Of a stretch of 64,000 nucleotides of DNA, positions 9,345 to 55,760 are shown one piece after another. The translations under genes and the position numbers were made by a program. The stretch is from the NCBI GenBank assembly GCA_964468755.1, contig CAYXWH010000003.1, positions 8,421 through 72,420 of the forward strand. The letters run 5' to 3'. The stretch is from an uncultured Dehalococcoidaceae bacterium. GTDB lineage: Bacteria > Chloroflexota > Dehalococcoidia > Dehalococcoidales > RBG-16-60-22. The notes below the pieces were generated by a model. It did not search any database. It was not told the origin of the DNA and was given only the letters and a program-made list of their open reading frames with translations. Positions within the stretch are counted from its first letter, which is position 1. Each line of letters opens with the position of its first letter.

Positions 9345-10420
9345 GTCTGCCTCACATAGGAAATCTGAATATAGCCATGAAAGCCCTTTTTGACGGACTA
9401 GGGGTCGACTACGTGATACCACCTCACAACAACCGGCGCACCCTTTCCCTGGGCGTCAAGTATGCCCCGGAAGGATTATGCATACCCTTCAAACTGACTC
9501 TGGGAAACATAATTGAAGCCGCCGAGATGGGAGCCGACACGATACTCATGGCGGCTGGCTACGGTATCTGCCGCTTGGGTTACTATGCCAAGATCCAGGA
9601 GCAAATACTCCATGACCTGGGCTATAACGCGGAAATGGTCCAGCTGGGAGTCTCGGAGAAGAAACTGTACGGTTTCCTGCAAATGGTCAAGCGCTTGTCA
9701 AATAACGCATCTTGGTTTAAGATAATTTCAGCGTTTCGTTTCGGGATGGCGAAGCTGAACGCGCTGGATGATATTGAGCGTCTGGTACAGAAGACACGCC
9801 CGGTAGAGCACCAGCCGGGAACTACCAACCAGCTTTATGCCAAGGCAATCCAGGACATTGACCAGGCATGTGATAACGCCAGTATAAAGAGGGTAAAGCA
9901 GGAGTACATCGAGAAACTACTGAGTGCCAATAAAAACGGCAATGCCAGACCGCTCATAGTGGGTATTACCGGTGAGTTTTACGTAGTACTTGAGCCTTTC
10001 TCCAATCTGGACATAGAGGTTGAGCTGGGCAAGCTCGGGGTAGAGGTGAGGCGGTCGACCTTTATCTCCGAGTGGACGAAATTCAGCTGGTTCTTAAATC
10101 CGCTGGGGGTCAATGAAAAAGACAGGATACACCAGGCAGCCATGCCTTACCTTAAACGAGACATTGGTGGTGATGGCTGGGAATCGGTCGGGGAAAAGGT
10201 GCTCCATGCCAAAGAATACGACGGCATTGTGCACCTGGCACCGTTTACCTGTATGCCGGAGATAATTGCCCAGAACATAATGCCAACCACCAGAGAAACT
10301 ATTCCGGTGCTGACCATTCTCTGTGATGAACAGTTAGCCAAGCCGGGAATGTTGACCAGGCTGGAAGCATTTGTTGATTTACTGGAACGGAGAAGGCGGA
10401 CCGCAAATAAAGCGCAATGA
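9335..10420 (+). CDS. BCR/HAD-family accessory subunit, second paralogous type
   Basis: 361-aa ORF starting MRIGLPHIGNLNIAMKALFDGLGVDYVIPP...GLCIPFKLTLGN. It has the same domain class as the C-terminal part of the fused activase proteins. 10-nt overlap with the upstream gene. Confidence 0.7.
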   Translation: MRIGLPHIGNLNIAMKALFDGLGVDYVIPPHNNRRTLSLGVKYAPEGLCIPFKLTLGNIIEAAEMGADTILMAAGYGICRLGYYAKIQEQILHDLGYNAEMVQLGVSEKKLYGFLQMVKRLSNNASWFKIISAFRFGMAKLNALDDIERLVQKTRPVEHQPGTTNQLYAKAIQDIDQACDNASIKRVKQEYIEKLLSANKNGNARPLIVGITGEFYVVLEPFSNLDIEVELGKLGVEVRRSTFISEWTKFSWFLNPLGVNEKDRIHQAAMPYLKRDIGGDGWESVGEKVLHAKEYDGIVHLAPFTCMPEIIAQNIMPTTRETIPVLTILCDEQLAKPGMLTRLEAFVDLLERRRRTANKAQ

Positions 10421-10441
10421 GACGAAATCTGAGGAGAGTCA

Positions 10442-11416
10442 ATGAAAGTCTATCTGGGAATTGATGTTGGGTCGGTTACTACCAAGATTGCGGCGCTCAA
10501 CCAGGATGATGAACTGATTGCCCATTGCTATATTCCCACTGAAGGCAAACCCATCACGATAATACAACAAGGCTTGAAACAAATAAAGCAGCAGTTGCCG
10601 GCTGACACCGAAATTAGCGGCGTGGCTACTACGGGGAGCGCCCGTTACCTCGCCGGGGTCATTGTGGGTGCCGACCTGGTTAAGAATGAGATTACCTGCC
10701 ATGCGGTAGCCGCCTTGCAGCGAATTCCTGAAGTGCAGACCATTATTGAAATCGGAGGACAGGACAGCAAAATCATCATTATTCGAGATAAAGTAGTTAC
10801 TGATTTCGGCATGAATACCGTGTGCGCCGCCGGCACCGGAAGCTTCCTTGACCACCAGGCGTTGAGACTCAATATGAGCATCGAAGATTTCACCCGGCAG
10901 GCGTTGAAGAGTGACACACCGGTCCGGATTGCCGGCCGCTGTACCGTTTTTGCCGAATCAGACATGGTCCATAAACAGCAAATGGGGCACCGGATTGAAA
11001 ACATTATCTACGGTCTCTGCCAGGCGCTGGTACGCAACTATCTCAATAATGTCGGCACCGGTAAGGAAATACTACCCCCGATTGCTTTTCAGGGCGGGGT
11101 TGCTTTTAATAGCGGTATCGTCAGAGCCCTTGAAGAAGAACTGAACACCACTATTGTCGTACCACCCCATCACGAGGTCATGGGAGCCATAGGGGCGGCT
11201 CTGCTCGCCCACGAAAAGGTGGTGGAATCCAGCAACGGCAGCCATTTCAAAGGGTTCGGCATAAGCGACGTGCACTATCAAACTTCATCATTTGAATGCA
11301 AATCCTGCCCGAATCTATGCGAGATTGCCCAGCTTTCAATCAATGGGAAGGTTCTTGCCCGCTGGGGTGGACGCTGTGACCTCTGGGAAAGAAGTCTCAG
11401 TGGTCAGCAATCTTGA
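10442..11416 (+). CDS. BcrA/BadF/HgdC-type ATPase (electron-transfer activase), single domain with Cys-rich tail
   Basis: 324-aa ORF. MKVYLGIDVGSVTTK and EIGGQDSK are ASKHA phosphate motifs, and CAAGTGSF is also present. The C-terminal tail is CKSCPNLCE...GRCDLWE. Confidence 0.8.
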   Translation: MKVYLGIDVGSVTTKIAALNQDDELIAHCYIPTEGKPITIIQQGLKQIKQQLPADTEISGVATTGSARYLAGVIVGADLVKNEITCHAVAALQRIPEVQTIIEIGGQDSKIIIIRDKVVTDFGMNTVCAAGTGSFLDHQALRLNMSIEDFTRQALKSDTPVRIAGRCTVFAESDMVHKQQMGHRIENIIYGLCQALVRNYLNNVGTGKEILPPIAFQGGVAFNSGIVRALEEELNTTIVVPPHHEVMGAIGAALLAHEKVVESSNGSHFKGFGISDVHYQTSSFECKSCPNLCEIAQLSINGKVLARWGGRCDLWERSLSGQQS

Positions 11417-11429
11417 CCAGAGGTAAGCG

Positions 11430-12437
11430 ATGATAATTGCCGTTGATGCTGCTGGCGGGGATTACGCCCCGCATGAAATTGTCAAGGGAGCCATAAAAGC
11501 CTCTCAGGAATACGGGGTTGAAATTGCCCTGGTAGGCAGGAGAGCCGTGCTTCACGTACTATTAGGGCGTGCCCGGCACAAACCCGGTATCAGTATCGTG
11601 GAAGCAACCCAGACAATTGGTCCCTACGAATCACCGATGAAGGCGCTGCGCAACAAGCCAAAATCATCGATCGTGGTCGGCATTAATCTGGTCAGGGAAG
11701 GCAAGGCGGCAGCATTTGTCTCCGCCGGCAATACCGGCGCAGTATTCGGTGCTGCCCTGGTCAACCTGGGTAAGACAAATGGTATTGAAAGACCGGCTAT
11801 CGGCTGTTTCCTGGATACCATCGGCTCTAACCCTGCGCTGCTGGTCGATGCCGGCGCCAATGCTGAGTGCCGCCCCAAGCATCTGGTTGAATTTGCCAGA
11901 TTAGGCTCCATTTACAGTAGTAATATCCTTAGGATTGACTCACCCCGCGTTGCCCTTCTCAATAACGGTGGAGAGGAAACCAAGGGTAACAGTCTGTCCC
12001 AGGAAAGCTATCAACTCCTTAAACAGACGAAGGAGATAAACTTCATCGGTAATATAGAAGGTCAGGATATCCTGCAAAAGTCCGCCGATGTTATCGTTAC
12101 CGACGGCTTTACCGGCAACATAGTACTCAAAACCATTGAAGGCCTTAGCGATAACTTTCTCACTTCGGCAAAGCAAATAGGGCATGTCTTTTCCAGTCTC
12201 TGTCATCTCCGCGGGCGTGACATGCTCCGCGATATCGGACTGGGTTCACTGGTCAAAAAGATGGATTACACGGAGTACGGCGGAGCCTGCCTCCTCGGTA
12301 TCCAGGGCAATGTAATCATCGCCCACGGGCGCAGTCAGTCGAAAGCGATTAAGAATGCCATCGGCCTTGCCCGAGAGACGGTTGAGCGAAGCACGGTACA
12401 GAAAATAAAGGAGGAAACGCATGAGCAAGCCAATTGA
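11430..12437 (+). CDS. plsX: phosphate acyltransferase PlsX
   Basis: 335-aa ORF with MIIAVDAAGGDYAPHEIVKGA and VTDGFTGNIVLK motifs. Confidence 0.92.
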   Translation: MIIAVDAAGGDYAPHEIVKGAIKASQEYGVEIALVGRRAVLHVLLGRARHKPGISIVEATQTIGPYESPMKALRNKPKSSIVVGINLVREGKAAAFVSAGNTGAVFGAALVNLGKTNGIERPAIGCFLDTIGSNPALLVDAGANAECRPKHLVEFARLGSIYSSNILRIDSPRVALLNNGGEETKGNSLSQESYQLLKQTKEINFIGNIEGQDILQKSADVIVTDGFTGNIVLKTIEGLSDNFLTSAKQIGHVFSSLCHLRGRDMLRDIGLGSLVKKMDYTEYGGACLLGIQGNVIIAHGRSQSKAIKNAIGLARETVERSTVQKIKEETHEQAN

Positions 12438-12747
12438 TATTGATGACAGTAATTTTGAGGAAATTGTCTCGAAGGCAAAGACACCGGTACTGATTGACTT
12501 CTGGGCACCCTGGTGTGCACCATGCAAGATGGTGGCTCCAGTGGTAGAGGAACTGTCAGCAGAATACGAAGGCAAGGTAAGCTTTGGCAAGGTCAATGTA
12601 GACGAGGCGCCGAAGATTGCTGTTAAATACGGGATTATGAGCATTCCCACCCTGATTGTTTTTAAAGACGGACAGCCGGTTTCCAATATAGTCGGCTACA
12701 GGCCAAAAGCCCAGTTAAAGGAAAGCCTGGACGCTGCGCTTGGTTGA
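12421..12747 (+). CDS. trxA: thioredoxin (WCAPC active site)
   Basis: 108-aa ORF with VLIDFWAPWCAPCKMVAPV and GIMSIPTLIVFKDGQ. The active site is CAPC rather than the usual CGPC. Confidence 0.9.
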   Translation: MSKPIDIDDSNFEEIVSKAKTPVLIDFWAPWCAPCKMVAPVVEELSAEYEGKVSFGKVNVDEAPKIAVKYGIMSIPTLIVFKDGQPVSNIVGYRPKAQLKESLDAALG

Positions 12748-13093
12748 GCATAGCATGCACGTTATCATTATCGACGATACCAGTATTGAATCCTGCGAGG
12801 CTCACTGCGGAGTTGACTGGTCTGCGGAAGAAAACATTAAACTGGCCGGTCAACGAATCACCGAACGGTTCAGCGACAGGATAGAAGTGCAGTATATTGA
12901 CCTCTCCAAGTCGTACTTCGAAAAGCAGGCCCGACAATGGCAAAGCAAGATAAAGACAGAACATTTGAACCTGCCGCTGCTGGTTATCAACGGGCGGGTG
13001 CGGATTTCCGGTCAGTTTGACGTCCGTATGCTACTGGATAGTATCGATGCCGAGCGAGAAATTACATATAAAGGTGATACCAATGGACAATAG
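12740..13093 (+). CDS. small Cys-containing protein, possibly thioredoxin-fold (YuzD/DUF1462-like)
   Basis: 117-aa ORF wedged between trxA and trxB, overlapping both. It has CEAHC near the N-terminus, YIDL, and PLLVINGRVRISG, resembling small disulfide-oxidoreductase-like proteins. The assignment is tentative. Confidence 0.4.
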   Translation: MVEHSMHVIIIDDTSIESCEAHCGVDWSAEENIKLAGQRITERFSDRIEVQYIDLSKSYFEKQARQWQSKIKTEHLNLPLLVINGRVRISGQFDVRMLLDSIDAEREITYKGDTNGQ

Positions 13094-16027: not shown

Positions 16028-16734
16028 AGCAGTTTAACGGTTTTCCCGCCAGGATGGATTTTGCCGCTATACCCAGACTCTTCTTCAGTGCCTTGCTGCC
16101 GGAAATAAATGACATGGCAGAGTTGAAGACGAGCCTGCACGTGATGGCAGCGCTGTACCGGAAACGGGGGTATCCCCGCGTGGTCACCCTGGGAGAATTG
16201 CTGGATAATGCCAGCCTGATGAACAGCCTTAAAAGCTTTGCCAAGCCACCGGATGAAGTCCTGCGTGGTGCGCTGAAGCTGGCTACCGAGCGGGGTACAT
16301 TCCTCCATATTGCGATGGAGAGAGACGCAGCGGGCGAGGATGTCTATCTCCTTAACGATGAGTCCGGACGGCAGGTCGCCGCCAGGATTCAAAGCGGTGA
16401 GGTCAAGATACCCGGCTTTAAACCGGTAGCACCGCGATACGTTGAAACCGGGGAGCCGCCCAACATTTTTACCCTTTACGAACAGAACATCGGGCTACTC
16501 ACTCCTATAATTGCCGATGAACTGCGCGAGGCAGAAAAGCTTTACCCGGAAAATTGGATTGTCGATGCCATCAAAGAAGCGACCTTGCTTAACAAGCGTA
16601 ACATACGATACATTATGAAGATTCTGCAGCGCTGGTCTTCAGAAGGCAAAAGTGATGGAGCATATCAGCGAGATTCTAAAAAGGGCACAGATAAATACTT
16701 CAAGCAAAAATACGGGCACATGGTCCAGCGATGA
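16024..16734 (+). CDS. DnaD-domain replication protein
   Basis: 236-aa ORF with an ATGA overlap with dnaB. The C-terminal YEQNIGLLTPIIADELREAEKLYPENWIVDAIKEA...IRYIMKILQRW matches the DnaD/DnaB_2 C-terminal domain. Confidence 0.65.
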   Translation: MKQFNGFPARMDFAAIPRLFFSALLPEINDMAELKTSLHVMAALYRKRGYPRVVTLGELLDNASLMNSLKSFAKPPDEVLRGALKLATERGTFLHIAMERDAAGEDVYLLNDESGRQVAARIQSGEVKIPGFKPVAPRYVETGEPPNIFTLYEQNIGLLTPIIADELREAEKLYPENWIVDAIKEATLLNKRNIRYIMKILQRWSSEGKSDGAYQRDSKKGTDKYFKQKYGHMVQR

Positions 16735-18049
16735 CGAGAAATCCCCGGCAAACCCGGACTGTCCCCTTTGCCAGGGAGCTGGCTTCGTCCACCCGCTGCT
16801 GCCCACAGGAAAGCCTGACTACACTCAGGTTATTCCCTGCGACTGCGTAAAAAAGGTAGTAGACAAAGAACGCCAGGATCGCTTGGAACTGTACAGCAAC
16901 CTGGGCTTTTTGACCCGCTTCACCTTCGATAAGCTGCAGCCCCGGGGCATGAGTCAGAACCCTCAATACCAGGAGCAATTCAATCGCGCCTATGAAGCCG
17001 CCAAATCCTTTGCCGCCGAACCGAAAGGTTGGTTCATCTTAAGCGGGCCCAGTGGTTGCGGCAAGACCCACCTTGCCGCCGCTATTGCCAACGAGTGCCG
17101 TCGTCAGGGTTTCCCGGTTTTGTACCAGACCACGCCCGACCTGCTTGACCACCTGCGCGCCACTTTTTTGCCGGGGAGCGAAGTCCCCTACGATTATTTC
17201 TTCGATAAGGTCCGCAACGCTCCATTGCTAATACTGGATGATCTGGGCGCTCAAACCGTCACACCCTGGTCTAACGAAAAGCTTGACCAGCTCCTGACCT
17301 ACCGCTTCAATAGTGAGTTACCTACCGCTATAGTTACCATCCAGTCACTTGACCAGCTCGATGACAGGCTGCGCACCCGCCTGACCAATTCAGCAATATG
17401 CCAGATGCACACTATCGAAGAAGAGACAGCTTCGTCAGTATACCAGTGGGGACCGGAGTTTGCCGCCCAGAGGAGGATGACCTTCGCCAGTTTCGACTGG
17501 CGGCGGGTCAACCTGCCGGCGGAACAACGCGAGAACCTGGAGACTGCCTATCGCCTGGCTCTTGATTTTGCCGGCTCGCCGGAAGGCTGGCTGGTACTCC
17601 AGGGAGTAAACGGCTGTGGCAAGACTCATCTGGCATCCGCAATTGTAAACTCGCGCTACCAGGCTAATCAGCCGGCTCTTTTCGTGGTGGTACCCGAGTT
17701 TCTTGACCACCTGCGCTACACCTTCAGCCCGGAAAGCAAGGTATCCTATGACCAGCTTTTCGAGAGTGTCAAGAAAGCCCCGCTTCTGGTGCTGGATGAC
17801 TTCGGCGAACAATCAACCACTCCCTGGGCACAGGAGAAGCTCTACCAGGTAATCAACTATCGCTATAATGCGCTGCTGCCCACTGTCATCACCACCGTCT
17901 GCTCCCTGGACGAGATTGAGGGGCGGGTTGGTTCCAGGCTGATTGATAACAAGCTCAGCACCTTTTTCCACATCACTGTACCTGACTACCGCGGTGACCT
18001 GTATTCCGGCCGCAGAAAAGCATCACCCAAAAATAGAAAAAACCGGTAA
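16655..18049 (+). CDS. DnaC/DnaI-like helicase loader with two tandem AAA+ modules
   Basis: N-terminal zinc-ribbon-like CPLCQGAGF...CDC. Two Walker A motifs (GPSGCGKTHLAAAIAN at ~17045; GVNGCGKTHLASAIVN at ~17603) and two Walker B motifs (LLILDDLG; LLVLDDFG). The flanking segments are alignable with each other. Confidence 0.8.
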   Translation: MEHISEILKRAQINTSSKNTGTWSSDDEKSPANPDCPLCQGAGFVHPLLPTGKPDYTQVIPCDCVKKVVDKERQDRLELYSNLGFLTRFTFDKLQPRGMSQNPQYQEQFNRAYEAAKSFAAEPKGWFILSGPSGCGKTHLAAAIANECRRQGFPVLYQTTPDLLDHLRATFLPGSEVPYDYFFDKVRNAPLLILDDLGAQTVTPWSNEKLDQLLTYRFNSELPTAIVTIQSLDQLDDRLRTRLTNSAICQMHTIEEETASSVYQWGPEFAAQRRMTFASFDWRRVNLPAEQRENLETAYRLALDFAGSPEGWLVLQGVNGCGKTHLASAIVNSRYQANQPALFVVVPEFLDHLRYTFSPESKVSYDQLFESVKKAPLLVLDDFGEQSTTPWAQEKLYQVINYRYNALLPTVITTVCSLDEIEGRVGSRLIDNKLSTFFHITVPDYRGDLYSGRRKASPKNRKNR

Positions 18050-28424: not shown

Positions 28425-29603
28425 TTAATATACCAGACTCCGGTCAGGTACTTTACCTCCCACCAGCTTCATGGCATGAATCTGGCAATAGTTACCGACA
28501 ATCGTGCCCGGCTGAATCACGACATTACCACTCACGTTACAGTCTTCCCCCATCATCACTCCGTAGCTCACGGAATGAGATTCGCCATTGACCTTGACCT
28601 CGCCTTCACCACTGCAGGCGGTAAGGTGTCCTTTAATCGCACACCCCTCATCTATTACTGAATCCTCGATAATGCAGCCTGGCCCGATAGCCACGTCATT
28701 GCCGATAACACTGTTCTTAATCTCGGTGAATGATGATATAACTACATTATCGCCGATACTCGTTCCCGGTAATATACAGACGTTGGGACCAATGTGACAG
28801 CCACTGCCAATAATTACCGGCCCGGAGAGATATGAATTGGAACGTATCACGCTGTCCTTCCCCACGGTAATCTGACCTCTAAGGAAAACATTTGATTCAA
28901 CAGTACCACCCACAGCAGGTTCAACGTGGTCAAGCACCTCTTCATTCAAATTCAGGATATCCCAGGGGTATACGACATCCAGCCAGCTGCCGTCGGTTTC
29001 CACCGCGTTTACCTCGTGTCCCTCATTTATCATGTTGTTCAGTACTTCAGGTATATCCAGGACTGACCCGGTATAGTTAAATATTTCTTTATTGAAGGCA
29101 TAAACACCGGTATTAACCAGGTTGCTGCGAGCTTCACCGGGTTTTTCTTCAATCCCCTGCACTATTCCCTGCTGTACCGCGACCACTCCGTACCGTGACG
29201 GGTCAGCCACCCTCTTTACCAGTAACGCTCCCGGTTTTTCATCGATAAATCGAGCGATGGTGTCGGCTACAATCAGGTTATCCCCCGGCAACACCAGAAA
29301 TTCATCTTCAGCCACGTCTACCGCCTGAGCCAGGGCATGTGCCGTACCCAGTTGCTTTTCCTGAGTAACGTATGTTATATCAACCCCCAACTGCTCTCCG
29401 GAGCCGATAGCATCGTAAATTTGCTCTTTCCGGTAGCCAACCACCAGCACGATGTTGCGGATGCCATTTTGTGATAATGCCTCAATTACATACCGGACTA
29501 TCGGCTTATCGGCGACGGCAAGCATGGTCTTGGGACGGTTCACCGTAAACGGCCTCAGCCTCTGCCCCTCGCCTGCGGCGAGAATTATTGCCTGCTTCAT
29601 CAT
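28425..29603 (-). CDS. bifunctional sugar-1-phosphate nucleotidyltransferase/acetyltransferase (GlmU-like, archaeal-type architecture), paralog 2
   Basis: Start moved to ATGATG at 29603 (MMKQAIILAAGEGQRLRPFT), preceded by GAGGTGAT. The ORF-track start at 29687 would overlap the upstream gene. N-terminal NTP-transferase fold plus C-terminal left-handed beta-helix hexapeptide repeats. Confidence 0.8.
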   Translation of the reverse strand: MMKQAIILAAGEGQRLRPFTVNRPKTMLAVADKPIVRYVIEALSQNGIRNIVLVVGYRKEQIYDAIGSGEQLGVDITYVTQEKQLGTAHALAQAVDVAEDEFLVLPGDNLIVADTIARFIDEKPGALLVKRVADPSRYGVVAVQQGIVQGIEEKPGEARSNLVNTGVYAFNKEIFNYTGSVLDIPEVLNNMINEGHEVNAVETDGSWLDVVYPWDILNLNEEVLDHVEPAVGGTVESNVFLRGQITVGKDSVIRSNSYLSGPVIIGSGCHIGPNVCILPGTSIGDNVVISSFTEIKNSVIGNDVAIGPGCIIEDSVIDEGCAIKGHLTACSGEGEVKVNGESHSVSYGVMMGEDCNVSGNVVIQPGTIVGNYCQIHAMKLVGGKVPDRSLVY

Positions 29604-29613
29604 AGCGATCACC

Positions 29614-30819
29614 TCAATAAATCTTTGAACCCGGTAGAATAACCCCACTGACCACGGCTCCCGGGCCGATATGGGTATCATTGCCAATCAGGCATCCAAG
29701 GTTTATTGACGCATTAATCCCGGTCTCCACACCATCACCAACTATCGCTCCCAGCTTGCGCCTCCCGGTCTTCTGGTTGATTACCGATATCTCTTTCCCG
29801 TCAAGCCGGAGGTTAGCAATCTTGGTACCGGCTCCAAAATTGCAATTTTCACCGATAACACTGTCACCGACATAGTTATGGTGGGGAAACTTGCTTCCCT
29901 TCATGATAATTGAGTTCTTGACCTCAACGGCACTGCCGATATGGCAGTTATCTCCGATGGAGGTGCCGGGACGAATATAGCAATTGGGTCCGATTTCACA
30001 ACCGCTCCCTATTGCCACCGGCCCGACGATATAGGCACCTGACCGGACCACCGTGTTCCGGCCAATGGCGACCACGCCCTTGATAACCGCATTGGTTTCT
30101 ATCTCACCCAGATTCTGCCCCTCAATCCGGGACAGCAGTGACTCATTCAGTGAGAGCAGGTCCCAGGGATAGCTCACGTCCATCCAGTGGCTAATTTCCT
30201 GACAGACAACCCCCTCCTGTGACTGGTCTATCATCAACTGTAATGAGTCGGTTATCTCATACTCTCCCCGCGGCGATTTGGGGGTATCGGCTATAGCAGC
30301 AAATATGTCCGGAGTGAAGAGATACATGCCGGCGTTGGCCATAGTACCGGGGGAGCGCACCGTTTTTTCATATATGCGCACCACCTTGCCTTCCTCCATC
30401 TCTACCATACCCAGGCCGGCGGTCCGCTCCACCTTAACCACGCTGATGGTAGCACTATCATTGCCGGCGACCTTACTAATGTCATCATGGCTTACCAAGA
30501 TATCCCCGTTAATTACCAGGAAGCTCCCGTCTACCATATTCTCTACGGCCCGGATGGCATCGGCGGTACCCAGCTGTTTTCTCTGGTTCCGGTAGGTGAT
30601 GTTTACCCCCCATTTCTCCCCGCTGCCGAAGTAACCACGCACCTGCTCATCACAATAGCCAACTATAAAGATAAATTCGGTGATACCTGCCTGGCGGGCT
30701 TCATCGAGCAGGTGCTCCAGTATAGGCTTGTTGGCAACGGAAACCATTACCTTGGGCCGGCTATAGGTCAAGGGACGCATGCGACTGCCTTCGCCGGCGG
30801 CTAAAATAACTGCCTTCAA
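29614..30819 (-). CDS. bifunctional sugar-1-phosphate nucleotidyltransferase/acetyltransferase (GlmU-like), paralog 1
   Basis: 401-aa ORF starting MKAVILAAGEGSRMRPLTYSRPK, with C-terminal hexapeptide repeats. Same architecture as the downstream paralog. Confidence 0.8.
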   Translation of the reverse strand: MKAVILAAGEGSRMRPLTYSRPKVMVSVANKPILEHLLDEARQAGITEFIFIVGYCDEQVRGYFGSGEKWGVNITYRNQRKQLGTADAIRAVENMVDGSFLVINGDILVSHDDISKVAGNDSATISVVKVERTAGLGMVEMEEGKVVRIYEKTVRSPGTMANAGMYLFTPDIFAAIADTPKSPRGEYEITDSLQLMIDQSQEGVVCQEISHWMDVSYPWDLLSLNESLLSRIEGQNLGEIETNAVIKGVVAIGRNTVVRSGAYIVGPVAIGSGCEIGPNCYIRPGTSIGDNCHIGSAVEVKNSIIMKGSKFPHHNYVGDSVIGENCNFGAGTKIANLRLDGKEISVINQKTGRRKLGAIVGDGVETGINASINLGCLIGNDTHIGPGAVVSGVILPGSKIY

Positions 30820-32108
30820 TCAGTCCTCCCGATACTGTTTTCCATTATACTGACGCCACTCTGATACAACTGGCGCGCCCTTGTCTCACTCTTTGCCTCG
30901 GCGGTTAACCTGACCTTGGGCTCGGTACCGGATGCCCTGACCAGCAACCAGCCATCCTTAAAAATAAGCTTTATGCCATCAATTGTCTCGATTGATTGGG
31001 GCTTGAGAGCCACCAATTTATCTTGCAGGCCGGTCATGTCAAGCCCATCGTTAATAATGCTACCCCGCCGGAGCGGGTACGAGGGCAGGCGGTCAACCAA
31101 CCCGGATATTCTCTGCTGGCTGGCGATAGCGGCAATTTGAGCTGCAGCATAGATGCCGTCCGGGCAGAGTGAGATGCCAGGAAAAATCCAGCTACCCGAG
31201 GCTTCCCCGCCAAAGTCCCCGCCTTTTCTCAGCTCTTCAGATACCGCGGCATCCCCCACTCGGGTGCGCCGGGTCACGAAACCCGCCTCTTCCATCACCA
31301 TTGAGGCATCCACCGTAGTTACCACGCTGCTGGCTCCGATTGCCCGACCGAGAATTACCAGTAGCGCATCTCCGGGGATAAATCTTCCCCGGTCGTCTAC
31401 CGCCATCATCCGGTCGGCATCTCCATCGTGGGCAATGCCGACCACGGCGCCGGTGTGCTTCACCGCCGCCATCAGCTCTGCCAGGTTGGCAGCCGTCGGC
31501 TCACTCTTCCGGGGGAACATGCCGTTATGGGAACAATTCAACGGTATCACCTCACCGCCCATCATGGTTATCAGGTATGGAGTAACCTCAGCCGCCGCAC
31601 CGCCACCGGCGTCCACCACCACCTTGCAATTCAATTTAGCCGGAAAATCCCGCAGTATCCGTTCAACATGCTGTTCCACCGCCCCGCTGCGGCTCTTGCC
31701 CGGCTTCATCTCTGACCACGGCGCTATATCCAGGGCATTGCTCAAAATTGCTTCCTCGATTTTTTTCTGCTGCGTGGAATCAAATGCCGAGCCATCGGGG
31801 TTCCAGAGCTTGATGCCGTTGTACTCCGGCGGATTATGTGAAGCGGTTATCATTACCCCGGCATCAAACTCCCCGGCGATAAAGGCAAGTGTCGGCGTGG
31901 GCACGATACCAATATCAATACTCCTGGCGCCAGCCGCCAGCAGTCCGGAAATAAGGGCACATTTCATAACATCGCTGGACGTCCTGGTGTCATTGCCCAC
32001 CACCACACTGTCGTTGTCCCGACCCACTGCCAGACCTACCTTAAAGGCTACATAGATTAAATCTTTATCGACAATTGCCCGTATCCCCGAAGTACCGAAG
32101 AGTTTCAT
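30816..32108 (-). CDS. glmM: phosphoglucosamine/phosphohexose mutase
   Basis: 430-aa ORF with MKLFGTSGIRA, the active-site loop TASHNPPEYNGIK, and the metal site HDGDADR. Confidence 0.85.
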   Translation of the reverse strand: MKLFGTSGIRAIVDKDLIYVAFKVGLAVGRDNDSVVVGNDTRTSSDVMKCALISGLLAAGARSIDIGIVPTPTLAFIAGEFDAGVMITASHNPPEYNGIKLWNPDGSAFDSTQQKKIEEAILSNALDIAPWSEMKPGKSRSGAVEQHVERILRDFPAKLNCKVVVDAGGGAAAEVTPYLITMMGGEVIPLNCSHNGMFPRKSEPTAANLAELMAAVKHTGAVVGIAHDGDADRMMAVDDRGRFIPGDALLVILGRAIGASSVVTTVDASMVMEEAGFVTRRTRVGDAAVSEELRKGGDFGGEASGSWIFPGISLCPDGIYAAAQIAAIASQQRISGLVDRLPSYPLRRGSIINDGLDMTGLQDKLVALKPQSIETIDGIKLIFKDGWLLVRASGTEPKVRLTAEAKSETRARQLYQSGVSIMENSIGRTD

Positions 32109-33670: not shown

Positions 33671-34966
33671 CTAGCACCGGTTGGTCCTGACACCCAGATA
33701 CTTTGCCACCAGCTCCATAGCGCAGTATTCGCCGCACATGCTACACGCCGGACTGGCCGAGGTATGTTTCCCGTGCACGCTTTTAACCCGCTCCGGGTCC
33801 AGAGCCAGGCGTGCCTGCTCATCCCAATCAAGGTTCTTGCGAGCCAGTGACATCTTCTTGTCCCGCTCTGCCGCTCCCGCCACTCCCTTGACGATATCCG
33901 CAGCGTGCGCTGCGATTCGCGAGGCGATTACTCCTTGCCTCACATCGTCAATATCGGGTAATGACAGGTGCTCCGACGGTGTCACATAGCAGAGAAAATC
34001 GGTACCGGCAGCGGCAGCAATAGCCCCGCCGATGGCGCCGGTTATATGGTCATAGCCAGCAGCCACATCAGTCACCAGCGGCCCCAGCACGTAAAAGGGG
34101 GCTTCATGACAGAGCGACTTCTGCAAGCGGACATTGGCTTCAATATGGTTCAACGGCAAATGCCCCGGTCCTTCAACCATCGCCTGAACACCAGCCTGCT
34201 GTGCCCTCTGGACTAGCTCGCCGATGACGAGCAATTCCTCTATTTGAGCCCGGTCGGTGGCATCAGCCAGACTACCGGGACGCATACCATCACCCAGGCT
34301 CAGAGTGACATCATACTCACTGGCTATCTCCAGAAGACGGTCGTAGTGCTCATATAACGGGTTTTCGCGCTCATTATGGAGAATCCAGCCAATCAGGAAA
34401 GCACCCCCCCGGGAAACCACATCAGCCACCCTTCCCTGCTTCTTGAGACGGTCAATAGCCGACCGGGTTACCCCACAATGCACGGTCAGGAAATCAACAC
34501 CATCCCGGGCGTGCTCTTCAATGACCGAAAAGAATTCATCAACAGTCATCTTCACTATAGCACCGTGTTTGTCAATGGCTTGAATACCGGCCTGATAAAT
34601 GGGCACCGTGCCCAACGCTACCTGACTGGCGGCAACAATTGCCCGTCGAAGTCCCGATATATCACCGCCGGTGCTCAAGTCCATAACGGTATCGGCACCG
34701 GCATCAACCGCCGTCTGTAGCTTGGCTAACTCGGTATCAAAGCTGCCAAAGTCCGGGGATGTTCCAATATTGGCATTCACCTTGGTCGCCAGGCCCCGGC
34801 CAATGCCACCGGGAACGAGCCCGGTATGATTGATATTCGCCGGAATGACGATTACACCATCGGCTATACCCTGACGGATAAATTCAGCTTCCAGCCCCTC
34901 AGCCCTGGCTACCAGTTCCATTTCAGGAGAAATATCACCCTTTTTCGCCGTGTCTACCTGAGTCAT
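33671..34966 (-). CDS. thiC: phosphomethylpyrimidine synthase
   Basis: Start set at the ATG at 34966 ([10 protein letters not shown]), preceded by AGGAG. Radical-SAM ThiC pattern with the C-terminal CSMCGEYCA cluster motif. A TPP riboswitch lies directly upstream. Confidence 0.95.
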
Positions 34967-34975
34967 CGCCACTCC

Positions 34976-35116
34976 TAAAAATAAAACCAAGGGCTACGAC
35001 GACTGCTAAACCCTTGGTCCAAACTGTTTCCGCTTCCCTACGCTCGCATTACCGAGAGCAGGTTCACAGGGTTGGCACCAAATCGCCTCTCAGCCTCTTC
35101 GAGCACCCCTAGCGGT
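34976..35116 (-). ncRNA. TPP (THI-box) riboswitch with terminator expression platform
   Basis: The reverse strand reads CUAGGGGUGCUCGAAGAGGCUGAGAGGCGAUUUGGUGCCAACCCUGUGAACCUGCUCUCGGUAAUGCGAGCGUAGGGAAGCGG, containing the conserved GGGGUGC, CUGAGA, ACCCU-GAACCUG and GUAGGGAA elements. It is followed by ACCAAGGG-N17-CCCUUGGU plus UUUUAUUUUU (34976-35018). Confidence 0.85.
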
Positions 35117-35197
35117 TTAACTACTATTCCAGAATATACCACAAACTTTGTTAAAGTTCAAACGGGTAGCACCTGCCGACTTATACCGTCACCTGGT

Positions 35198-49899: not shown

Positions 49900-50571
49900 A
49901 TGAACGATAAAAACCTGACCTTGCCGAAAAAGAAATACGAGTACGGCTACGAGCTTGCGTACCAGATTGCGAGCAAGCAACTGGCCAGCCTTACTGCTAT
50001 TGAGCAGCAGTGTCTCAATAGCGGCGCACGCTATATTGATGCCGGAAAAGTCAGTATCGACTACCTGAATCAATCATACCTCATTTCGATTCCCACTGCT
50101 GAAGTCTCAACGCTGACCGGGAAAGAGAAGGTTCCCATCAGGGATACCATCCTCATCCTCCACTACTTTATCCAGGCGAAAGGGACCCCCCTTTCCCACC
50201 GGCTGGTCGCCTACCGGGAACTCAAGGAAGGTTCACTATATGCTCCGGTATTCTACCAGCGCGCCCTCAAGCCACTGGTTGACCATTTCGGCAACGAGCC
50301 GCAGCGGTTACTGGATACCGCCGGGGCTCTGGGTGGGCAGCCTGCCCGGTTTGGAGACGTAGCGGTAACCATTGACGCCTTCCCCCGGGTGCCTATCACC
50401 CTGGCCCTGTGGAGGGGTGATGACGAATTCCCACCGGAAGGGAACCTGATGTTTGACAGTACGGTACCCGACTACCTGACCAGTGATGATATTCATGCAT
50501 TATGTGAAATTATAGCCTGGAGGCTGGTTAAACTGCTCAAGGCGGGAGGTGATAGCCCTGATAAAAGGTAA
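49900..50571 (+). CDS. DUF3786-like protein
   Basis: ATG at 49900 (the ORF track uses a TTG at 49894). The pattern FGDVAVTIDAFPRVPITLALWRGDDEFPPEGNLMFDSTVPDYL matches my recollection of DUF3786, a family often found next to acs genes. Confidence 0.6.
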   Translation: MNDKNLTLPKKKYEYGYELAYQIASKQLASLTAIEQQCLNSGARYIDAGKVSIDYLNQSYLISIPTAEVSTLTGKEKVPIRDTILILHYFIQAKGTPLSHRLVAYRELKEGSLYAPVFYQRALKPLVDHFGNEPQRLLDTAGALGGQPARFGDVAVTIDAFPRVPITLALWRGDDEFPPEGNLMFDSTVPDYLTSDDIHALCEIIAWRLVKLLKAGGDSPDKR

Positions 50572-50599
50572 TGTTCTCCAAGCAGATGTCAAGGAAACA

Positions 50600-51037
50600 A
50601 TGAAGGAAATCTTCGCCCACTATAGCGGCGGCCGGGAGGAGCTTATTCCCGTCCTGCAGGAGACCCAGCAACACTTCCGCTATTTACCCGAAGAAGCCAT
50701 GCAGGAAATTGCCAGATTTCTGAAAGTGCCGGCAAGCACCGTGTACGGAGTGGTTACCTTCTACGCTCAGTTCAAGCTTACGCCGTTAGGCAGGAAGATA
50801 GTCAAAATATGCCGGGGTACCGCCTGCCATGTCCGCGGTGGTGCCAAGATACTGGAGGAGGTAGAAAAACAGCTGGGTATTAAAGCCGGGGAGACCACCG
50901 AAGACCTTGAGTGGTCTCTGGAAACAATCGCCTGCTTTGGCTCGTGCGCACTGGCCCCGGTAATGGTGATTGATAATGAAGTGCACGGCCGTATGTCTCC
51001 AGCCAAGGTTAAATCGGTTCTTTCCGGTACGGAATAA
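50600..51037 (+). CDS. NuoE/HydC-like [2Fe-2S] subunit
   Basis: ATG at 50600 after AAGGA. Cysteine motif CRGTACHVRGG...CFGSCALAP. Confidence 0.85.
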   Translation: MKEIFAHYSGGREELIPVLQETQQHFRYLPEEAMQEIARFLKVPASTVYGVVTFYAQFKLTPLGRKIVKICRGTACHVRGGAKILEEVEKQLGIKAGETTEDLEWSLETIACFGSCALAPVMVIDNEVHGRMSPAKVKSVLSGTE

Positions 51038-51054
51038 GCTAAGAGGTGCGTCAA

Positions 51055-52995
51055 GTGAACTTCGAGGAGTTACAAAAAAAGGCAACCGCCGAGTGGCAAT
51101 CACTGAGCAATCTGGACCACCCGCATATCATCATCGGGACGGCTACCTGCGGTCGTGCCGCCGGAGCGATGGGTGTTATCGCTGCCATCAAGAATGAGCT
51201 TGCCAAACACAACATCCCGGCAACCATCACCCAGGTCGGCTGCATTGGCATCTGCTATGCCGAACCGCTGGTCGAGATAGCCAAGCCGGACCGGCCTCAT
51301 ATCGTCTATGGTAACGTTACCCCGAAAATGGTCCCCCAGCTTATCGAAGACTACCTCTTGCATGATAACCCTCATCCCGAACTGGCGATGGGTACTGTCG
51401 GTGAAGAGACTATCGAGGGAATTCCCCGGTTATGGGAGTTGCCTATACTGAAACCACAGGTACGAATATCGCTGCGAAATTGCGGGATTATCGACCCGGA
51501 GAAAATCGACCATTATATTGCCCGTGACGGTTATAGCGGGCTGGTAAATGCCCTGAAAAAGAGCCCGCAAGAAGTGATTGACGAAATAAAGAAATCAGGA
51601 CTGCGTGGTCGTGGTGGCGCCGGCTTTCCCACCGGCATGAAGTGGCAGTTCTGCCGTGACGCTCAGGGAATACCCAAGTACCTGATTTGCAATGCCGACG
51701 AAGGTGACCCCGGCGCCTTCATGGACCGGTCGCTGCTGGAAAGTGACCCCCATGCCGTGCTGGAGGGGATGCTCATCGGCGCCTATGCCATGGGCGCTAA
51801 CGACGGCTATCTTTACTGCCGTGCCGAGTACCCGCTGGCTATCGAACGGCTCAAGCTGGCGCTCCAGCAGATGGAAGCCTACGGACTGATTGGCGATAAT
51901 ATCCTCGGCACGGATTTCAGTTTCCACATCAAGATTAAAGAAGGCGCCGGCGCCTTTGTCTGCGGTGAAGAGACTGCCCTTATCGCCTCCATCGAGGGCA
52001 AGCGAGGTATGCCCCGCTCCCGTCCTCCCTTCCCCGCTCAGTCCGGTCTCTGGGGAAAACCGACCAATATCAATAACGTGGAGACGTGGGCTAATGTCTC
52101 CGCCATATTACAGCACAGCGGCGACTGGTATGCCGGTTACGGTACCGAAAAAAGCAAGGGCACCAAGACCTTTGCGCTGGCCGGAAAGATAAACCGTACC
52201 GGACTTATCGAAGTGCCCATGGGTATATCCCTCCGTGAAATCATTTACGGCATCGGTGGCGGTATACCCGGCGGTAAAGAATTCAAGGCGGTGCAGACCG
52301 GCGGACCTTCCGGCGGCTGCCTGCCCGCTACCCTGCTTGACCTGCCCGTTGAATATGAGTCCCTGGCCGAGGCCGGGGCTATCATGGGTTCGGGCGGCAT
52401 GGTGGTTATGGACTCGGACACGTGCATGGTTGATATCGCCCGCTACTTCCTGTCGTTTACCCAGTCGGAATCATGCGGGAAGTGTGTCCCCTGCCGGGTC
52501 GGTACCAAGCACATGCTGGACATCCTGGAAAAAATAACCCGGGGCGAAGGCACACCGGAAGATGTTGACCTGCTGCTCAATCTCGGTAAATCAATTAAGG
52601 TGGGGGCACTCTGCGGACTGGGACAGACAGCGCCCAATCCGGTGCTTACCACCTATCGCTACTTTGCTGATGAATATGAAGCGCATACCCGGGACAAGAT
52701 ATGCCCGGCTTTAGCCTGCACCGATCTGATTACTTTTTATATCCTGGCGGATAAGTGCCAGGGATGCGGCATTTGCCTGCGAAGTTGTCCGGCTGAAGCC
52801 ATCACCGGCGCCAAGCGACTGGTGCACGTCATTGACCAGAGTAAGTGTATCAAATGCGGCACCTGTCTTGAGGTCTGCCCCACCAAGTTCAGCGCAGTGG
52901 TCAAGGTCTCCGGAGAGGAAATAGCCGTGCCCAGTGAGCCGGTCCCGGTTACCGCCGCCAGACCCACCGCCGGCACAACGGCTCAAGATGAATGA
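51055..52995 (+). CDS. NuoF/HydB-like NAD(P)H-binding flavoprotein with extra FeS domains
   Basis: GTG at 51055 (or 51046). N-terminal thioredoxin-like [2Fe-2S] region (GTATCGRAAGA...GCIGICYAEP), GLRGRGGAGFPTGMKW (FMN/NADH site), CGKCVPCRVGT, and a C-terminal 2x[4Fe-4S] domain (CQGCGICLRSCP, CIKCGTCLEVCP). Confidence 0.9.
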   Translation: MNFEELQKKATAEWQSLSNLDHPHIIIGTATCGRAAGAMGVIAAIKNELAKHNIPATITQVGCIGICYAEPLVEIAKPDRPHIVYGNVTPKMVPQLIEDYLLHDNPHPELAMGTVGEETIEGIPRLWELPILKPQVRISLRNCGIIDPEKIDHYIARDGYSGLVNALKKSPQEVIDEIKKSGLRGRGGAGFPTGMKWQFCRDAQGIPKYLICNADEGDPGAFMDRSLLESDPHAVLEGMLIGAYAMGANDGYLYCRAEYPLAIERLKLALQQMEAYGLIGDNILGTDFSFHIKIKEGAGAFVCGEETALIASIEGKRGMPRSRPPFPAQSGLWGKPTNINNVETWANVSAILQHSGDWYAGYGTEKSKGTKTFALAGKINRTGLIEVPMGISLREIIYGIGGGIPGGKEFKAVQTGGPSGGCLPATLLDLPVEYESLAEAGAIMGSGGMVVMDSDTCMVDIARYFLSFTQSESCGKCVPCRVGTKHMLDILEKITRGEGTPEDVDLLLNLGKSIKVGALCGLGQTAPNPVLTTYRYFADEYEAHTRDKICPALACTDLITFYILADKCQGCGICLRSCPAEAITGAKRLVHVIDQSKCIKCGTCLEVCPTKFSAVVKVSGEEIAVPSEPVPVTAARPTAGTTAQDE

Positions 52996-55760
52996 GACAC
53001 GACATGGAAAAAATCACCCTGACCATTAACGGTCAGAAAGTCGAAGCGGAAAAAGGGATGACTGTTCTTGAAGCCGCCACTGCGGCTGGTATTTACATCC
53101 CCACGCTCTGCTATCATCCTGACCTGCAACCGTACGGCGGCTGCCGCCTGTGTGTCGTCGAGATTGAAAATGTCCGCGGTTTGCCTACTTCCTGCACCAC
53201 CCCCGCCACCGACGGCATGGTGGTCACCACGGAGTCCGAGGCTATCAACGAGGTACGCCGTACCTCTCTGGAACTGATACTGGCTAACCACCCCTGCGAA
53301 TGCCTGCTCTGTCACCGCCGCGACCGCTGCCAGCCTAATGATATATGTTTGCGCCACGTGGCGGTAACTGACCGCTGCGTGGTCTGCCCGCGAAACGGGC
53401 ACTGCGAGCTCCAGCAGGTAGTCGACTACCTTGGGGTGCATGAGTTACATATCAGCATGGACAAGAAGAGAGTACCGATAGACACCAGCAATCCCTTTTT
53501 CGATATTGACCGTAACCGCTGCATTCTCTGCGGCCGTTGCGTGCGTACCTGCCAGGAGATAACCTGTGCCGGGGCAATTGACATGTCCTATCGCGGCTAC
53601 TCCATGAAGGTAGCGACCTTCGGTGACACGCCACTGATGGACTCCACCTGCCGTTCCTGCGGTGAATGCATGGTCCGCTGTCCGGTAGGCGCCATTGTTC
53701 CCAAAAACACCGGTCAGGCGGAAACAGAGGTGTTAACCGTATGTCCTTACTGCGGAGTCGGCTGCCAGATGTATCTGGGTATTGCCGACGACCATATAGT
53801 GGGAGTCCGCGGTGATGAAGCAGGCCCGGCCAATCAGGGGCTGCTCTGTGTAAAAGGACGCTTTGGTATTACCGAGTTTGTCCACCACCCCGAGCGCCTG
53901 ACCACTCCCCTCATCAAGAGGAACGGTCACTTTGAAGAAGCTTCCTGGGAAGAGGCACTGGCGCTGGTAGCCAGCAAGCTGGAGAATTATGAAAGTGACC
54001 AGGTGGCAGTCATCTCTTCCGCCAAGTGCACCAACGAGGACAACTATGTAGCCCAAAAATTCGCCCGGGCGGTGCTGGGCACCAACAATGTCGACCACTG
54101 TGCCCGCCTCTGACATTCCCCCACAGTGGCCGGTCTGGTCACTACCCTCGGCAGCGGAGCCATGACCAACTCCATCTCCGATATAAAGGACGCCGCCTGT
54201 ATCCTCTCCATCGGCAGCAATACCACTACCTCCCACCCGGTAATCGGCATGCGGGTGCTCCAGGCGGTACAGAAAGGTACCAAACTGATTGTCGCCAATC
54301 CCCGGGAAATTGACCTTGTCCGCTATGCTGACCTGTGGCTGCGGCACCGCTCCGGCACCGATGTCGCCCTGCTCATGGGCATTATGAAGATAATCGTTGA
54401 TGAAGGATTAGCCGACGACAGCTTTATCCAGCAGCGGTGCGAGAATTTTGACGCTTTTCGAGAATCATTAAACGATTATCCCCTTGATACAGTGGAGCGA
54501 ATTACCGGGGTACCGGCCGACCGGATAGTTGCCGCCGCCAGGATGTACGCTACGAATAGTCCGGCATCCCTCCTCTATGCGATGGGCATTACCCAGCACT
54601 CTCACGGGACCGACAACGTCATTGCTACCGCCAATCTGGCGATGCTTACCGGCAATATCGGTAAGCCGGGGAGCGGGGTAAACCCGCTCCGCGGGCAGAA
54701 TAATGTGCAGGGTGCGTGTGACGTGGGCGCCCTGCCCAATGTCTATCCCGGCTACCAGTCGGTTGCCGACCCGGCAATCCGGGAGAAATTCGAGAATGCC
54801 TGGGATTACCGGCTGAACCCTGCCCCGGGAATGGTGCTCACCGAGATTATCCCCGCCGCTTATGAAGGCAAGATAAAGGCAATCTATCTCATCGGGGAAA
54901 ACCCCATCCTCAGCGACCCGGATGCCAGCCATGTTGAAGAAGCATTGAAGCACCTGGATTTCTTCGTCGTTCAGGACATTTTCCTTTCGGAGACAGCGAA
55001 ACTGGCTGACGTTGTTTTACCGTCAACCACTTTCGCTGAAAAGGAAGGCACTTACACCAATACCGAGCGCCGCGTGCAACTGTCACAAAAAGCCATCAAT
55101 CCGGCAGGTAGCTGCAAGCCCGACTGGTGGATTACCCGGCAGATTGCCCAGCGGATGGGTGGCAAGGGATTTGAGTACCAGAATCCCGCTCAGATTATGC
55201 AGGAAATAGCCAGATTGACCCCCAGCTATGGAGGTATTTCCTTCGAGCGCCTCGAAAGAGAAGGCGGCTTGCAGTGGCCCTGCCCCACCGAAGAACACCC
55301 CGGAACGCCCATTCTGCATACCGCTCAGTTCACCCGGGGTAAGGGAAGGTTTATACCACTGGAATACAAGCCTCCCATGGAACTCCCCGATGATGAGTAC
55401 CCGCTGATTCTCACCACCGAGCGCGACCTGTTCCACTTCCACACCGGCACCATGACACGAAAAGTCAAGGGCCTCAACACCTTCCGGTCGGAAGAGTTCG
55501 TGCAGATAAGTCCGCAGGACGCCGAGTCGCTCAACATCATGGATGGTGACATGGTACAGGTGACTTCCCGTCGCGGTGAGGTGACCGCCAGAGCACAGCT
55601 TACCGACATTTCCCCGGTTGGCGTCATTTCGATGACCTTTCACTTTGCGGAAAGCCCCACCAATAAAGTGACCAGCCCGGCACTTGACCCGGTAGCCAAG
55701 ATACCTGAGTTCAAGGTAGCAGCGGTAAGAATCAAGAAAAGCGAATTAGTACCCCGATAA
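52992..55760 (+). CDS. fdhA: formate dehydrogenase catalytic subunit, selenocysteine-containing (TGA at 54111-54113 read as Sec)
   Basis: ORF-track entries 52992..54113 and 54126..55760 are in the same frame, separated only by TGA plus 12 nt. Read-through gives [30 protein letters not shown]. The N-terminal part carries NuoG-like 2Fe-2S and 4Fe-4S motifs and CPYCGVGCQM. The C-terminal part is the Mo/W-bisPGD domain. Total 922 aa. Confidence 0.88.
54125..54143 (+). other. SECIS-like hairpin
   Basis: AGUGGCC-GGUCU-GGUCACU: a 7-bp stem with one G-U pair and a GGUC-containing apical loop. It begins 11 nt after the UGA, the same spacing and loop sequence as I recall for the E. coli fdhF SECIS. 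Confidence 0.6.

Follow-up and report, generated by a model that had tools for sequence, protein, structure and literature searches.

An in-frame UGA codon, very probably read as selenocysteine, and its fdhF-type hairpin in a formate dehydrogenase gene of an uncultured Dehalococcoidaceae bacterium

The fdhA locus and its internal UGA codon

The stretch of DNA analysed here (the window) comprises 64,000 nt of contig CAYXWH010000003.1 from an uncultured Dehalococcoidaceae bacterium. It contains two consecutive open reading frames (ORFs), 52992..54113 and 54126..55760, which share a frame and are parted only by a TGA codon and four sense codons, as had been read from the sequence before the present analysis and is confirmed here. 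The first ORF is terminated by the TGA at 54111-54113, the next ORF of the same frame opens at a GTG at 54126, and the 12 nt between the two read CAT TCC CCC ACA (H S P T). Counted from the ATG at 52992, the whole frame has 923 codons including the TAA stop and encodes 922 residues. We consider it highly probable that the two ORFs are one formate dehydrogenase (FDH) gene, fdhA, whose UGA is decoded as selenocysteine (Sec) ligating molybdenum or tungsten (Mo/W), and that the hairpin directly downstream is its selenocysteine insertion sequence (SECIS). The features of the locus are listed below, with their positions in the window.

52992..55760, plus strand: fdhA, 922 aa including the predicted Sec374, with N-terminal 2Fe-2S/4Fe-4S domains followed by Molybdop_Fe4S4, Molybdopterin and Molydop_binding; based on translation, Pfam, TIGR01591, structure alignment and the ratio of nonsynonymous to synonymous substitution rates (dN/dS)
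54111..54113, plus strand: in-frame UGA, very probably read as Sec (residue 374), the putative Mo/W ligand in the motif CARL-U-H
54114..54124, plus strand: 11-nt spacer from the UGA to the hairpin, CAUUCCCCCAC, which encodes H, S, P and part of T; taken from the sequence itself
54125..54143, plus strand: apical hairpin of the predicted SECIS, within the codons for T-V-A-G-L-V-T
50549..51037, plus strand: NuoE/HoxE-like thioredoxin-type 2Fe-2S subunit (PF01257; NCBIfam NuoE / formate dehydrogenase gamma), the probable gamma subunit of the FDH complex
51046..52995, plus strand: NuoF-like subunit binding flavin mononucleotide and NAD(P)H, with extra 4Fe-4S domains (PF01512, PF10589, TIGR01959), the probable beta subunit of the FDH complex

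The stop codon of the NuoF-like gene overlaps the ATG at 52992 as ATGA. The start of fdhA is ambiguous, because its homologues align only from residue 5-7; the ATG at 53004 is therefore also possible and would give a protein of 918 aa. A clear Shine-Dalgarno sequence was seen at neither of these two starts.

The region 52992..55760 is predicted to encode the alpha subunit of an NAD(P)H-type FDH with a Mo/W-bis(pyranopterin guanine dinucleotide) (bisPGD) cofactor. The joined protein scores 887.2 bits against the NCBIfam model TIGR01591 (Fdh-alpha), an equivalog model for formate dehydrogenase subunit alpha with a cut-off of 666.25. The match is unbroken across the TGA, with residues 249-914 covering profile positions 1-672 out of 672. 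The Fdh-alpha domain order PF04879 - PF00384 - PF01568 is complete in the joined protein, and the TGA cuts the middle domain, PF00384 (Molybdopterin), leaving profile positions 1-81 before it and 97-352 after it. The best 120 full-length database homologues, with 66-77% identity, are all single polypeptides of 886-927 aa, and none of them occurs as two separate polypeptides. The few of these that carry any source name come from Chloroflexota or Dehalococcoidales, and the motif CARLCH was found in 119 of the 120. Domain continuity, the whole-protein profile match and the single-polypeptide homologues thus all agree with the claim that this is a single gene and not two.

In Mo/W-bisPGD formate dehydrogenases the metal ligand in the context CAR-x-(U/C)-H is either Sec or Cys. 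An alignment to FDH homologues, which the sequence-only reading had proposed as a check, places the TGA residue on this metal-ligand Cys/Sec. The joined protein aligns end to end with the NAD-dependent FdsA (6tg9, 9wxb; 754-771 bits), residues 7-917 corresponding to 24-934. Its catalytic module also aligns with FdhF of the T. kivui hydrogen-dependent CO2 reductase (7qv7), with an F420-dependent FDH, and with E. coli FdhF (1aa6, 563 bits). The TGA position corresponds to the Cys of CARVCH/CARLCH in FdsA (6tg9, from Rhodobacter capsulatus, and 9wxb) and T. kivui FdhF (7qv7) and to a residue recorded as X, presumably Sec, in entry 9t1s. The His after the TGA and the GVNPLRGQNNVQG Arg motif are conserved in the structure alignments. 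The assignment of the catalytic residues (Sec/Cys ligand, His, Arg) is one that we take from established knowledge of FdhF and FdsA.

Among known enzymes, the NAD+-dependent FdsABG of R. capsulatus and Cupriavidus necator (6tg9, 9wxb) is the best full-length structural homologue of the window protein. The two are alike in their iron-sulfur (FeS)-rich N-terminus and in their NuoE/NuoF-like partner subunits. They differ at the active site, where FdsABG uses Cys (CARVCH) and so has no UGA and no SECIS, whereas the window gene has UGA. E. coli FdhF shares with the window protein the Mo-bisPGD catalytic module and a UGA (UGA140) at the CAR-x-U-H position. The window protein, however, has an extra 245-aa N-terminal FeS extension (Fer2_4, NuoG-type 4Fe-4S), and it pairs with NuoE/NuoF-like subunits, whereas E. 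coli FDH-H pairs with hydrogenase 3. The Sec-containing, NADP-dependent FdhAB of Moorella thermoacetica and the Sec-FDHs of Chloroflexi/Dehalococcoidia (the An-B22 single-amplified genome; Dehalogenimonas alkenigignens DEALK_19115) belong to other species with other subunit sets and are likened to the window enzyme by description.

The hairpin downstream of the UGA

Bacterial SECIS elements are hairpins located directly 3' of the UGA with a GGUC-type loop, as in fdhF. The hairpin AGUGGCC-GGUCU-GGUCACU, said by the sequence-only reading to start 11 nt past the TGA, is present at 54125-54143. Its 5' arm is AGUGGCC (54125-54131), its loop GGUCU (54132-54136) and its 3' arm GGUCACU (54137-54143), and the stem has 7 pairs, one of them G-U. 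Folding with RNAfold returned exactly this hairpin as both the minimum-energy and the centroid structure, with a minimum free energy of -9.8 kcal/mol.

Hairpins with a 7-bp stem and a 5-nt loop occur at about 0.1-0.2% of window positions, and one stands at exactly +11 nt from 5 of the 2303 TGA triplets in the window. The version with a GGTCT loop was found once in 128,000 positions (both window strands), at the fdhA TGA. The position of the hairpin is unlikely by chance, and the decisive support for it is comparative.

The hairpin was compared with the SECIS of E. coli K-12 fdhF. From the UGA codon onwards the E. coli gene reads TGA CAC GGC CCA TCG GTT GCA GGT CTG CAC and the window reads TGA CAT TCC CCC ACA GTG GCC GGT CTG GTC. 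Both have an 11-nt spacer and a GGUCUG at offset +21, which encodes the Gly-Leu of V-A-G-L. The same offset and the same stem start make the window hairpin a positional homologue of the fdhF SECIS. The argument from the 11-nt spacing rests on this direct comparison; a literature search gave no citable passage on the spacing rule of the minimal E. coli SECIS. The two elements differ in form: the window hairpin has a perfect 7-bp stem and a 5-nt GGUCU loop, whereas in the E. coli element the loop is GGUC (4 nt), one U is bulged and a lower helix is present.

Species representatives, one genome each and the window's own genome not among them, were scanned and gave 80 related loci, the best match being 74% identical. 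These loci belong to Dehalococcoidales, other Chloroflexota, Planctomycetota (Kuenenia among them), Desulfobacterota, Clostridia and others. Once duplicates were removed, 45 distinct sites had TGA as the aligned codon and 42 had TGC or TGT; the in-frame UGA stands where homologues have Cys, as expected of an fdhF-type recoding site. At least 6 of the 7 stem pairs are present at 44/45 TGA sites, whereas only 3/42 Cys sites have all 7. GGTCT forms the loop at 43/45 TGA sites, and the loop sequence varies among the Cys sites. The Gly codon of the loop is GGT at 44/45 TGA sites; among the Cys sites, 32 have Gly, encoded by GGG (10), GGC (9), GGA (7) or GGT (6), and 10 have Ala. The peptide downstream of the Cys sites also drifts (e.g., VAGLAQ, VVGGIA, VAAALA).

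Covariation was assessed in an ungapped alignment of 44 TGA sites. Standard pairs fill 95% of cells, compared with 18-55% in controls in which the 3' arm was slid. Compensatory double changes occur in 4 of the 7 stem pairs, for example GUGGCC/GGCCAC to GUUGCA/UGCAAC in Clostridia and GCC..CUG to GCU..CUA, and they fall at synonymous third positions on both sides. The covariation score was matched by 0 of 500 shuffles, and RNAalifold, run on the 44 TGA orthologues, independently predicted the same 7-pair helix. The claim that the hairpin acts as a SECIS is supported by its fdhF register, by its covariation in the TGA orthologues and by its being mostly missing from the Cys ones.

Some Cys-codon orthologues retain the hairpin. 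A full hairpin is found in loci L016 (site 7696, GTGGCCGGTCTGGTCAC) and L006 (site 11030), and partial remnants are found in L051 (6/7 pairs) and L078 (5/7 pairs). Locus L088 contains a syntenic, 75%-identical orthologue (fdhA 10001-12757) in which a TGT is followed by the hairpin with a single mismatch. From their sequences, such hairpins look like 'fossil' SECIS elements left after recent Sec-to-Cys replacement, and L016 and L006, two of the three full-stem Cys sites, look like recent replacements of this kind.

Other loci contain two TGA-bearing FDH alpha genes within about 10 kb, each with a SECIS hairpin (L022, L060, L071 and L082); in L022 both TGA sites are identical in sequence. Molybdenum/tungsten-cofactor riboswitches lie near Sec-FDH genes in Clostridia-type loci (L073, 6614-6735; L075, 14312-14430; L080, 96-215; L081, 7368-7486). 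An Rfam scan found no such riboswitch in the window.

Within the window, the TGA stop of plsX (12435) is also followed at +11 nt by a 7-bp hairpin, which is AT-rich. This hairpin was judged a chance occurrence, because the GGUCU loop is missing and no noteworthy open frame follows it. A scan of the window for TGA codons open on both sides and for TGA-bounded gene extensions yielded no convincing case of another split selenoprotein gene.

Selenocysteine decoding and its alternatives

By homology to E. coli fdhF, the hairpin at 54125-54143 would be bound by the C-terminal domain of the elongation factor SelB, which would carry Sec-tRNA(Sec). This tether would bring the tRNA to the ribosomal A site at the UGA, where its delivery would compete with release factor 2. 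SelB decoding is presumably common to E. coli fdhF and the window gene. Because it lies inside the V-A-G-L-V-T codons, the hairpin would be constrained both as protein and as RNA.

Several observations weigh against Sec decoding guided by this hairpin. Shuffled sequences fold as well as the 50-nt and 41-nt segments do (z = +1.4 and +0.2), and the isolated 24-mer alone stands out (z = -2.5). Single-sequence z-scores were discarded as a criterion, because short SECIS hairpins in GC-rich coding sequence are not expected to stand out. The window hairpin also lacks two features of the E. coli element, a lower stem and a bulged U in the 5' arm; the latter, a determinant for E. coli SelB, is regarded as specific to E. 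coli and is not known to be universal among bacterial SECIS elements. The sole Rfam family matching the site is SECIS_3 (RF01989), which aligns at 54108-54166 over its full model length, including the apical hairpin. Its outer stem is not formed in the window, and the match (42.0 bits, E = 1.1e-8 in a 201-nt search) does not reach the gathering score of 63. No SECIS family was found at the Rfam gathering threshold in the window or in seven related loci; these thresholds are too narrow to be informative here. Moreover, all 119 of the best 120 annotated homologues in which the motif was found have Cys at the site. Cys in the closest annotated homologues is expected, because gene callers split the Sec forms.

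Finally, no selA, selB, selD or tRNA-Sec was found in the 64-kb window or in the fetched flanks of related loci. ARAGORN detected no tRNA gene of any kind in the window, and its search of 43 loci gave no tRNA-Sec either. With E. coli SelA, SelB and SelD as queries, tblastn matched only IF-2 across the window and all loci, and NCBIfam and Pfam scans of some 50 longer window ORFs, which covered all but one of the ORFs taken as genes, revealed no sel gene. The genes selA, selB, selC and selD presumably lie elsewhere in the genome. This is a reasonable expectation, because Sec machinery and Sec-FDHs have been published for Dehalococcoidia (PMC4918011, PMC4959059, PMC13326102). In Dehalogenimonas alkenigignens, selC, selB and Sec-synthesis genes accompany an FDH gene that has an in-frame UGA and a SECIS (PMC4918011), and subsurface Chloroflexi single-cell genomes are reported to encode Sec-FDHs and Sec-specific elongation factors (PMC4959059, PMC5736913). 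In BSepDB, two Dehalococcoidia metagenome-assembled genomes (MAGs) rank in the top ten of bacteria for selenoprotein richness, 46-49 selenoprotein genes are recorded for MAGs of this class, and FdhA is the commonest bacterial selenoprotein (PMC13326102).

Other explanations of the internal TGA were weighed. This Dehalococcoidales clade appears to be in active Sec/Cys flux, and the UGA might then be decoded conditionally or non-canonically, for example by SelB-dependent Cys insertion or selenium-dependent switching. This reading is raised because the syntenic Cys orthologues in L016, L006 and L088 keep an intact or barely decayed SECIS, and we consider it very improbable. If it were true, the clade would offer a natural series in which Sec loss could be dated and in which one could test what maintains a SECIS once the UGA is gone.

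It is very improbable that the UGA is recoded to an amino acid other than Sec, either by SelB-dependent Cys insertion through a tRNA-Sec-like tRNA(Cys) or by near-cognate Trp/Cys read-through when selenium is scarce. Non-canonical SelB-dependent tRNAs are described from some anaerobes, Sec and Cys forms swap readily in the clade, and the window gives no indication which aminoacyl-tRNA is delivered. However, non-Sec recoding has no positive evidence in its favour, while the element is positionally homologous to the SECIS of E. coli fdhF and the class is known to have the canonical Sec trait (PMC4918011, PMC13326102).

A single transversion turns TGC or TGT into TGA, and close Cys relatives exist (e.g., P0002 with 77% and P0003 with 75% identity), so the TGA could be a recent nonsense mutation of a Cys codon in a pseudogene encoding a dead FDH. 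This explanation is highly improbable, as the same TGA is found in three strain variants and at the 45 distinct orthologous sites from several phyla. The variants come from three independent metagenome contigs (ENA ERZ27256778, JGI 3300029267 and JGI 3300017987), which have an identical N-terminal ORF, the same TGA and identical next 57 nt. They differ from the window at 1, 10 and 16 other fdhA positions, 18 of the 27 substitutions being synonymous. In comparisons with TGA-bearing orthologues at greater distance, the part of fdhA before the TGA has a dN/dS of 0.08-0.23 and the part after it one of 0.12-0.18. These values are approximate, with dS near saturation, and indicate purifying selection on both halves of fdhA. 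The downstream half, with its low dN/dS, also contains no further stops or frameshifts. In a dead gene there would be no reason for a hairpin to be kept through covarying synonymous sites.

Two real polypeptides, an FeS subunit ending at the TGA and a molybdopterin subunit starting at the GTG at 54126, are extremely unlikely. In each of the three metagenome contigs, gene callers annotate two products (373 aa and 544 aa), and a GTG is indeed present four codons past the TGA. But no Shine-Dalgarno or purine-rich ribosome-binding sequence was found upstream of this GTG, and the four codons H-S-P-T that separate the TGA from this GTG are kept as coding sequence in all orthologues. The cut would fall inside one Pfam domain, both products would lose the metal ligand and the adjacent His, and every Cys-form relative is a single polypeptide. 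A sequencing or assembly error, for which only the general possibility speaks, has a negligible probability, as it is refuted by the independent assemblies of three samples, which agree on the codon and its flanks yet differ elsewhere in the gene.

Global reassignment of TGA was ruled out, because TGA is the ordinary terminator of 16 of the 49 catalogued window genes. The TGA in fdhA is the sole internal in-frame stop among these 49 genes.

Gene continuity, the codon's place in the active site, a hairpin that is conserved, covaries and is linked to TGA, and purifying selection on both halves collectively support the sequence-only reading of a single 922-aa selenoprotein. Sec would be inserted at the UGA at 54111-54113. 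The locus is very probably a canonical Sec-containing FDH gene with an fdhF-type SECIS, split by stop-codon-naive ORF calling.

Genomic context and implications

Pfam and NCBIfam scans placed fdhA in a near-complete Wood-Ljungdahl cluster at 36681-63155 of the window. The order of the cluster is fhs, acsV, folD, acsD, acsA, acsB, acsC, acsE, a DUF3786 gene, the nuoE-like gene, the nuoF-like gene, fdhA, a major facilitator superfamily (MFS) transporter gene, queA (on the opposite strand), mvhD with FeS/flavoprotein genes, metF, metV and the gene for a NiFe hydrogenase large subunit. Loci L001-L003 repeat this order between acsD and the NiFe hydrogenase gene, and L088 keeps the part from acsD to fdhA only. 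In this setting, fdhA would encode the catalytic subunit of a cytoplasmic, NuoE/NuoF-coupled, NAD(P)H-type Mo- or W-dependent formate dehydrogenase and would serve the CO2-to-formate step of the cluster that houses it. The enzyme is most likely an NAD(P)H-linked (possibly ferredoxin-linked) CO2 reductase/formate dehydrogenase of the methyl branch. We infer its electron partners from domain content only.

Some other features were observed in the window. A thiamine pyrophosphate (TPP) riboswitch (Rfam RF00059, 68.9 bits) is located at 35018-35120 on the minus strand, directly upstream of thiC (33671-34990, minus strand), and is the only match in the window in the Rfam gathering-threshold scan. 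The minus-strand region 28425-32108 contains two tandem archaeal-type bifunctional GlmU-like genes and an archaeal-type GlmM gene adjoining glmS; this archaeal-type set fits a Dehalococcoidia-like lineage. Beside dnaB, a 465-aa ORF on the plus strand (16652-18049) has two separate stretches matching models of DnaC/IstB-type helicase-loader ATPases and may be a tandem duplication or a fusion.

Sec-FDHs with a SECIS have already been reported in Dehalococcoidia (PMC4918011), so the finding is conceptually nothing new and its value lies mainly in annotation. The arrangement is well known, and gene finders routinely mis-split such genes. In every assembly examined, automatic gene callers cut the enzyme into "proteins" of 373 aa and 544 aa. 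This splitting hides Sec forms from protein databases, in which 119/120 best full-length homologues show Cys, and the mis-split gene distorts Wood-Ljungdahl metabolic reconstructions in uncultured Dehalococcoidales. For the organism itself, the implication is that its CO2 fixation or formate metabolism would be selenium-dependent.

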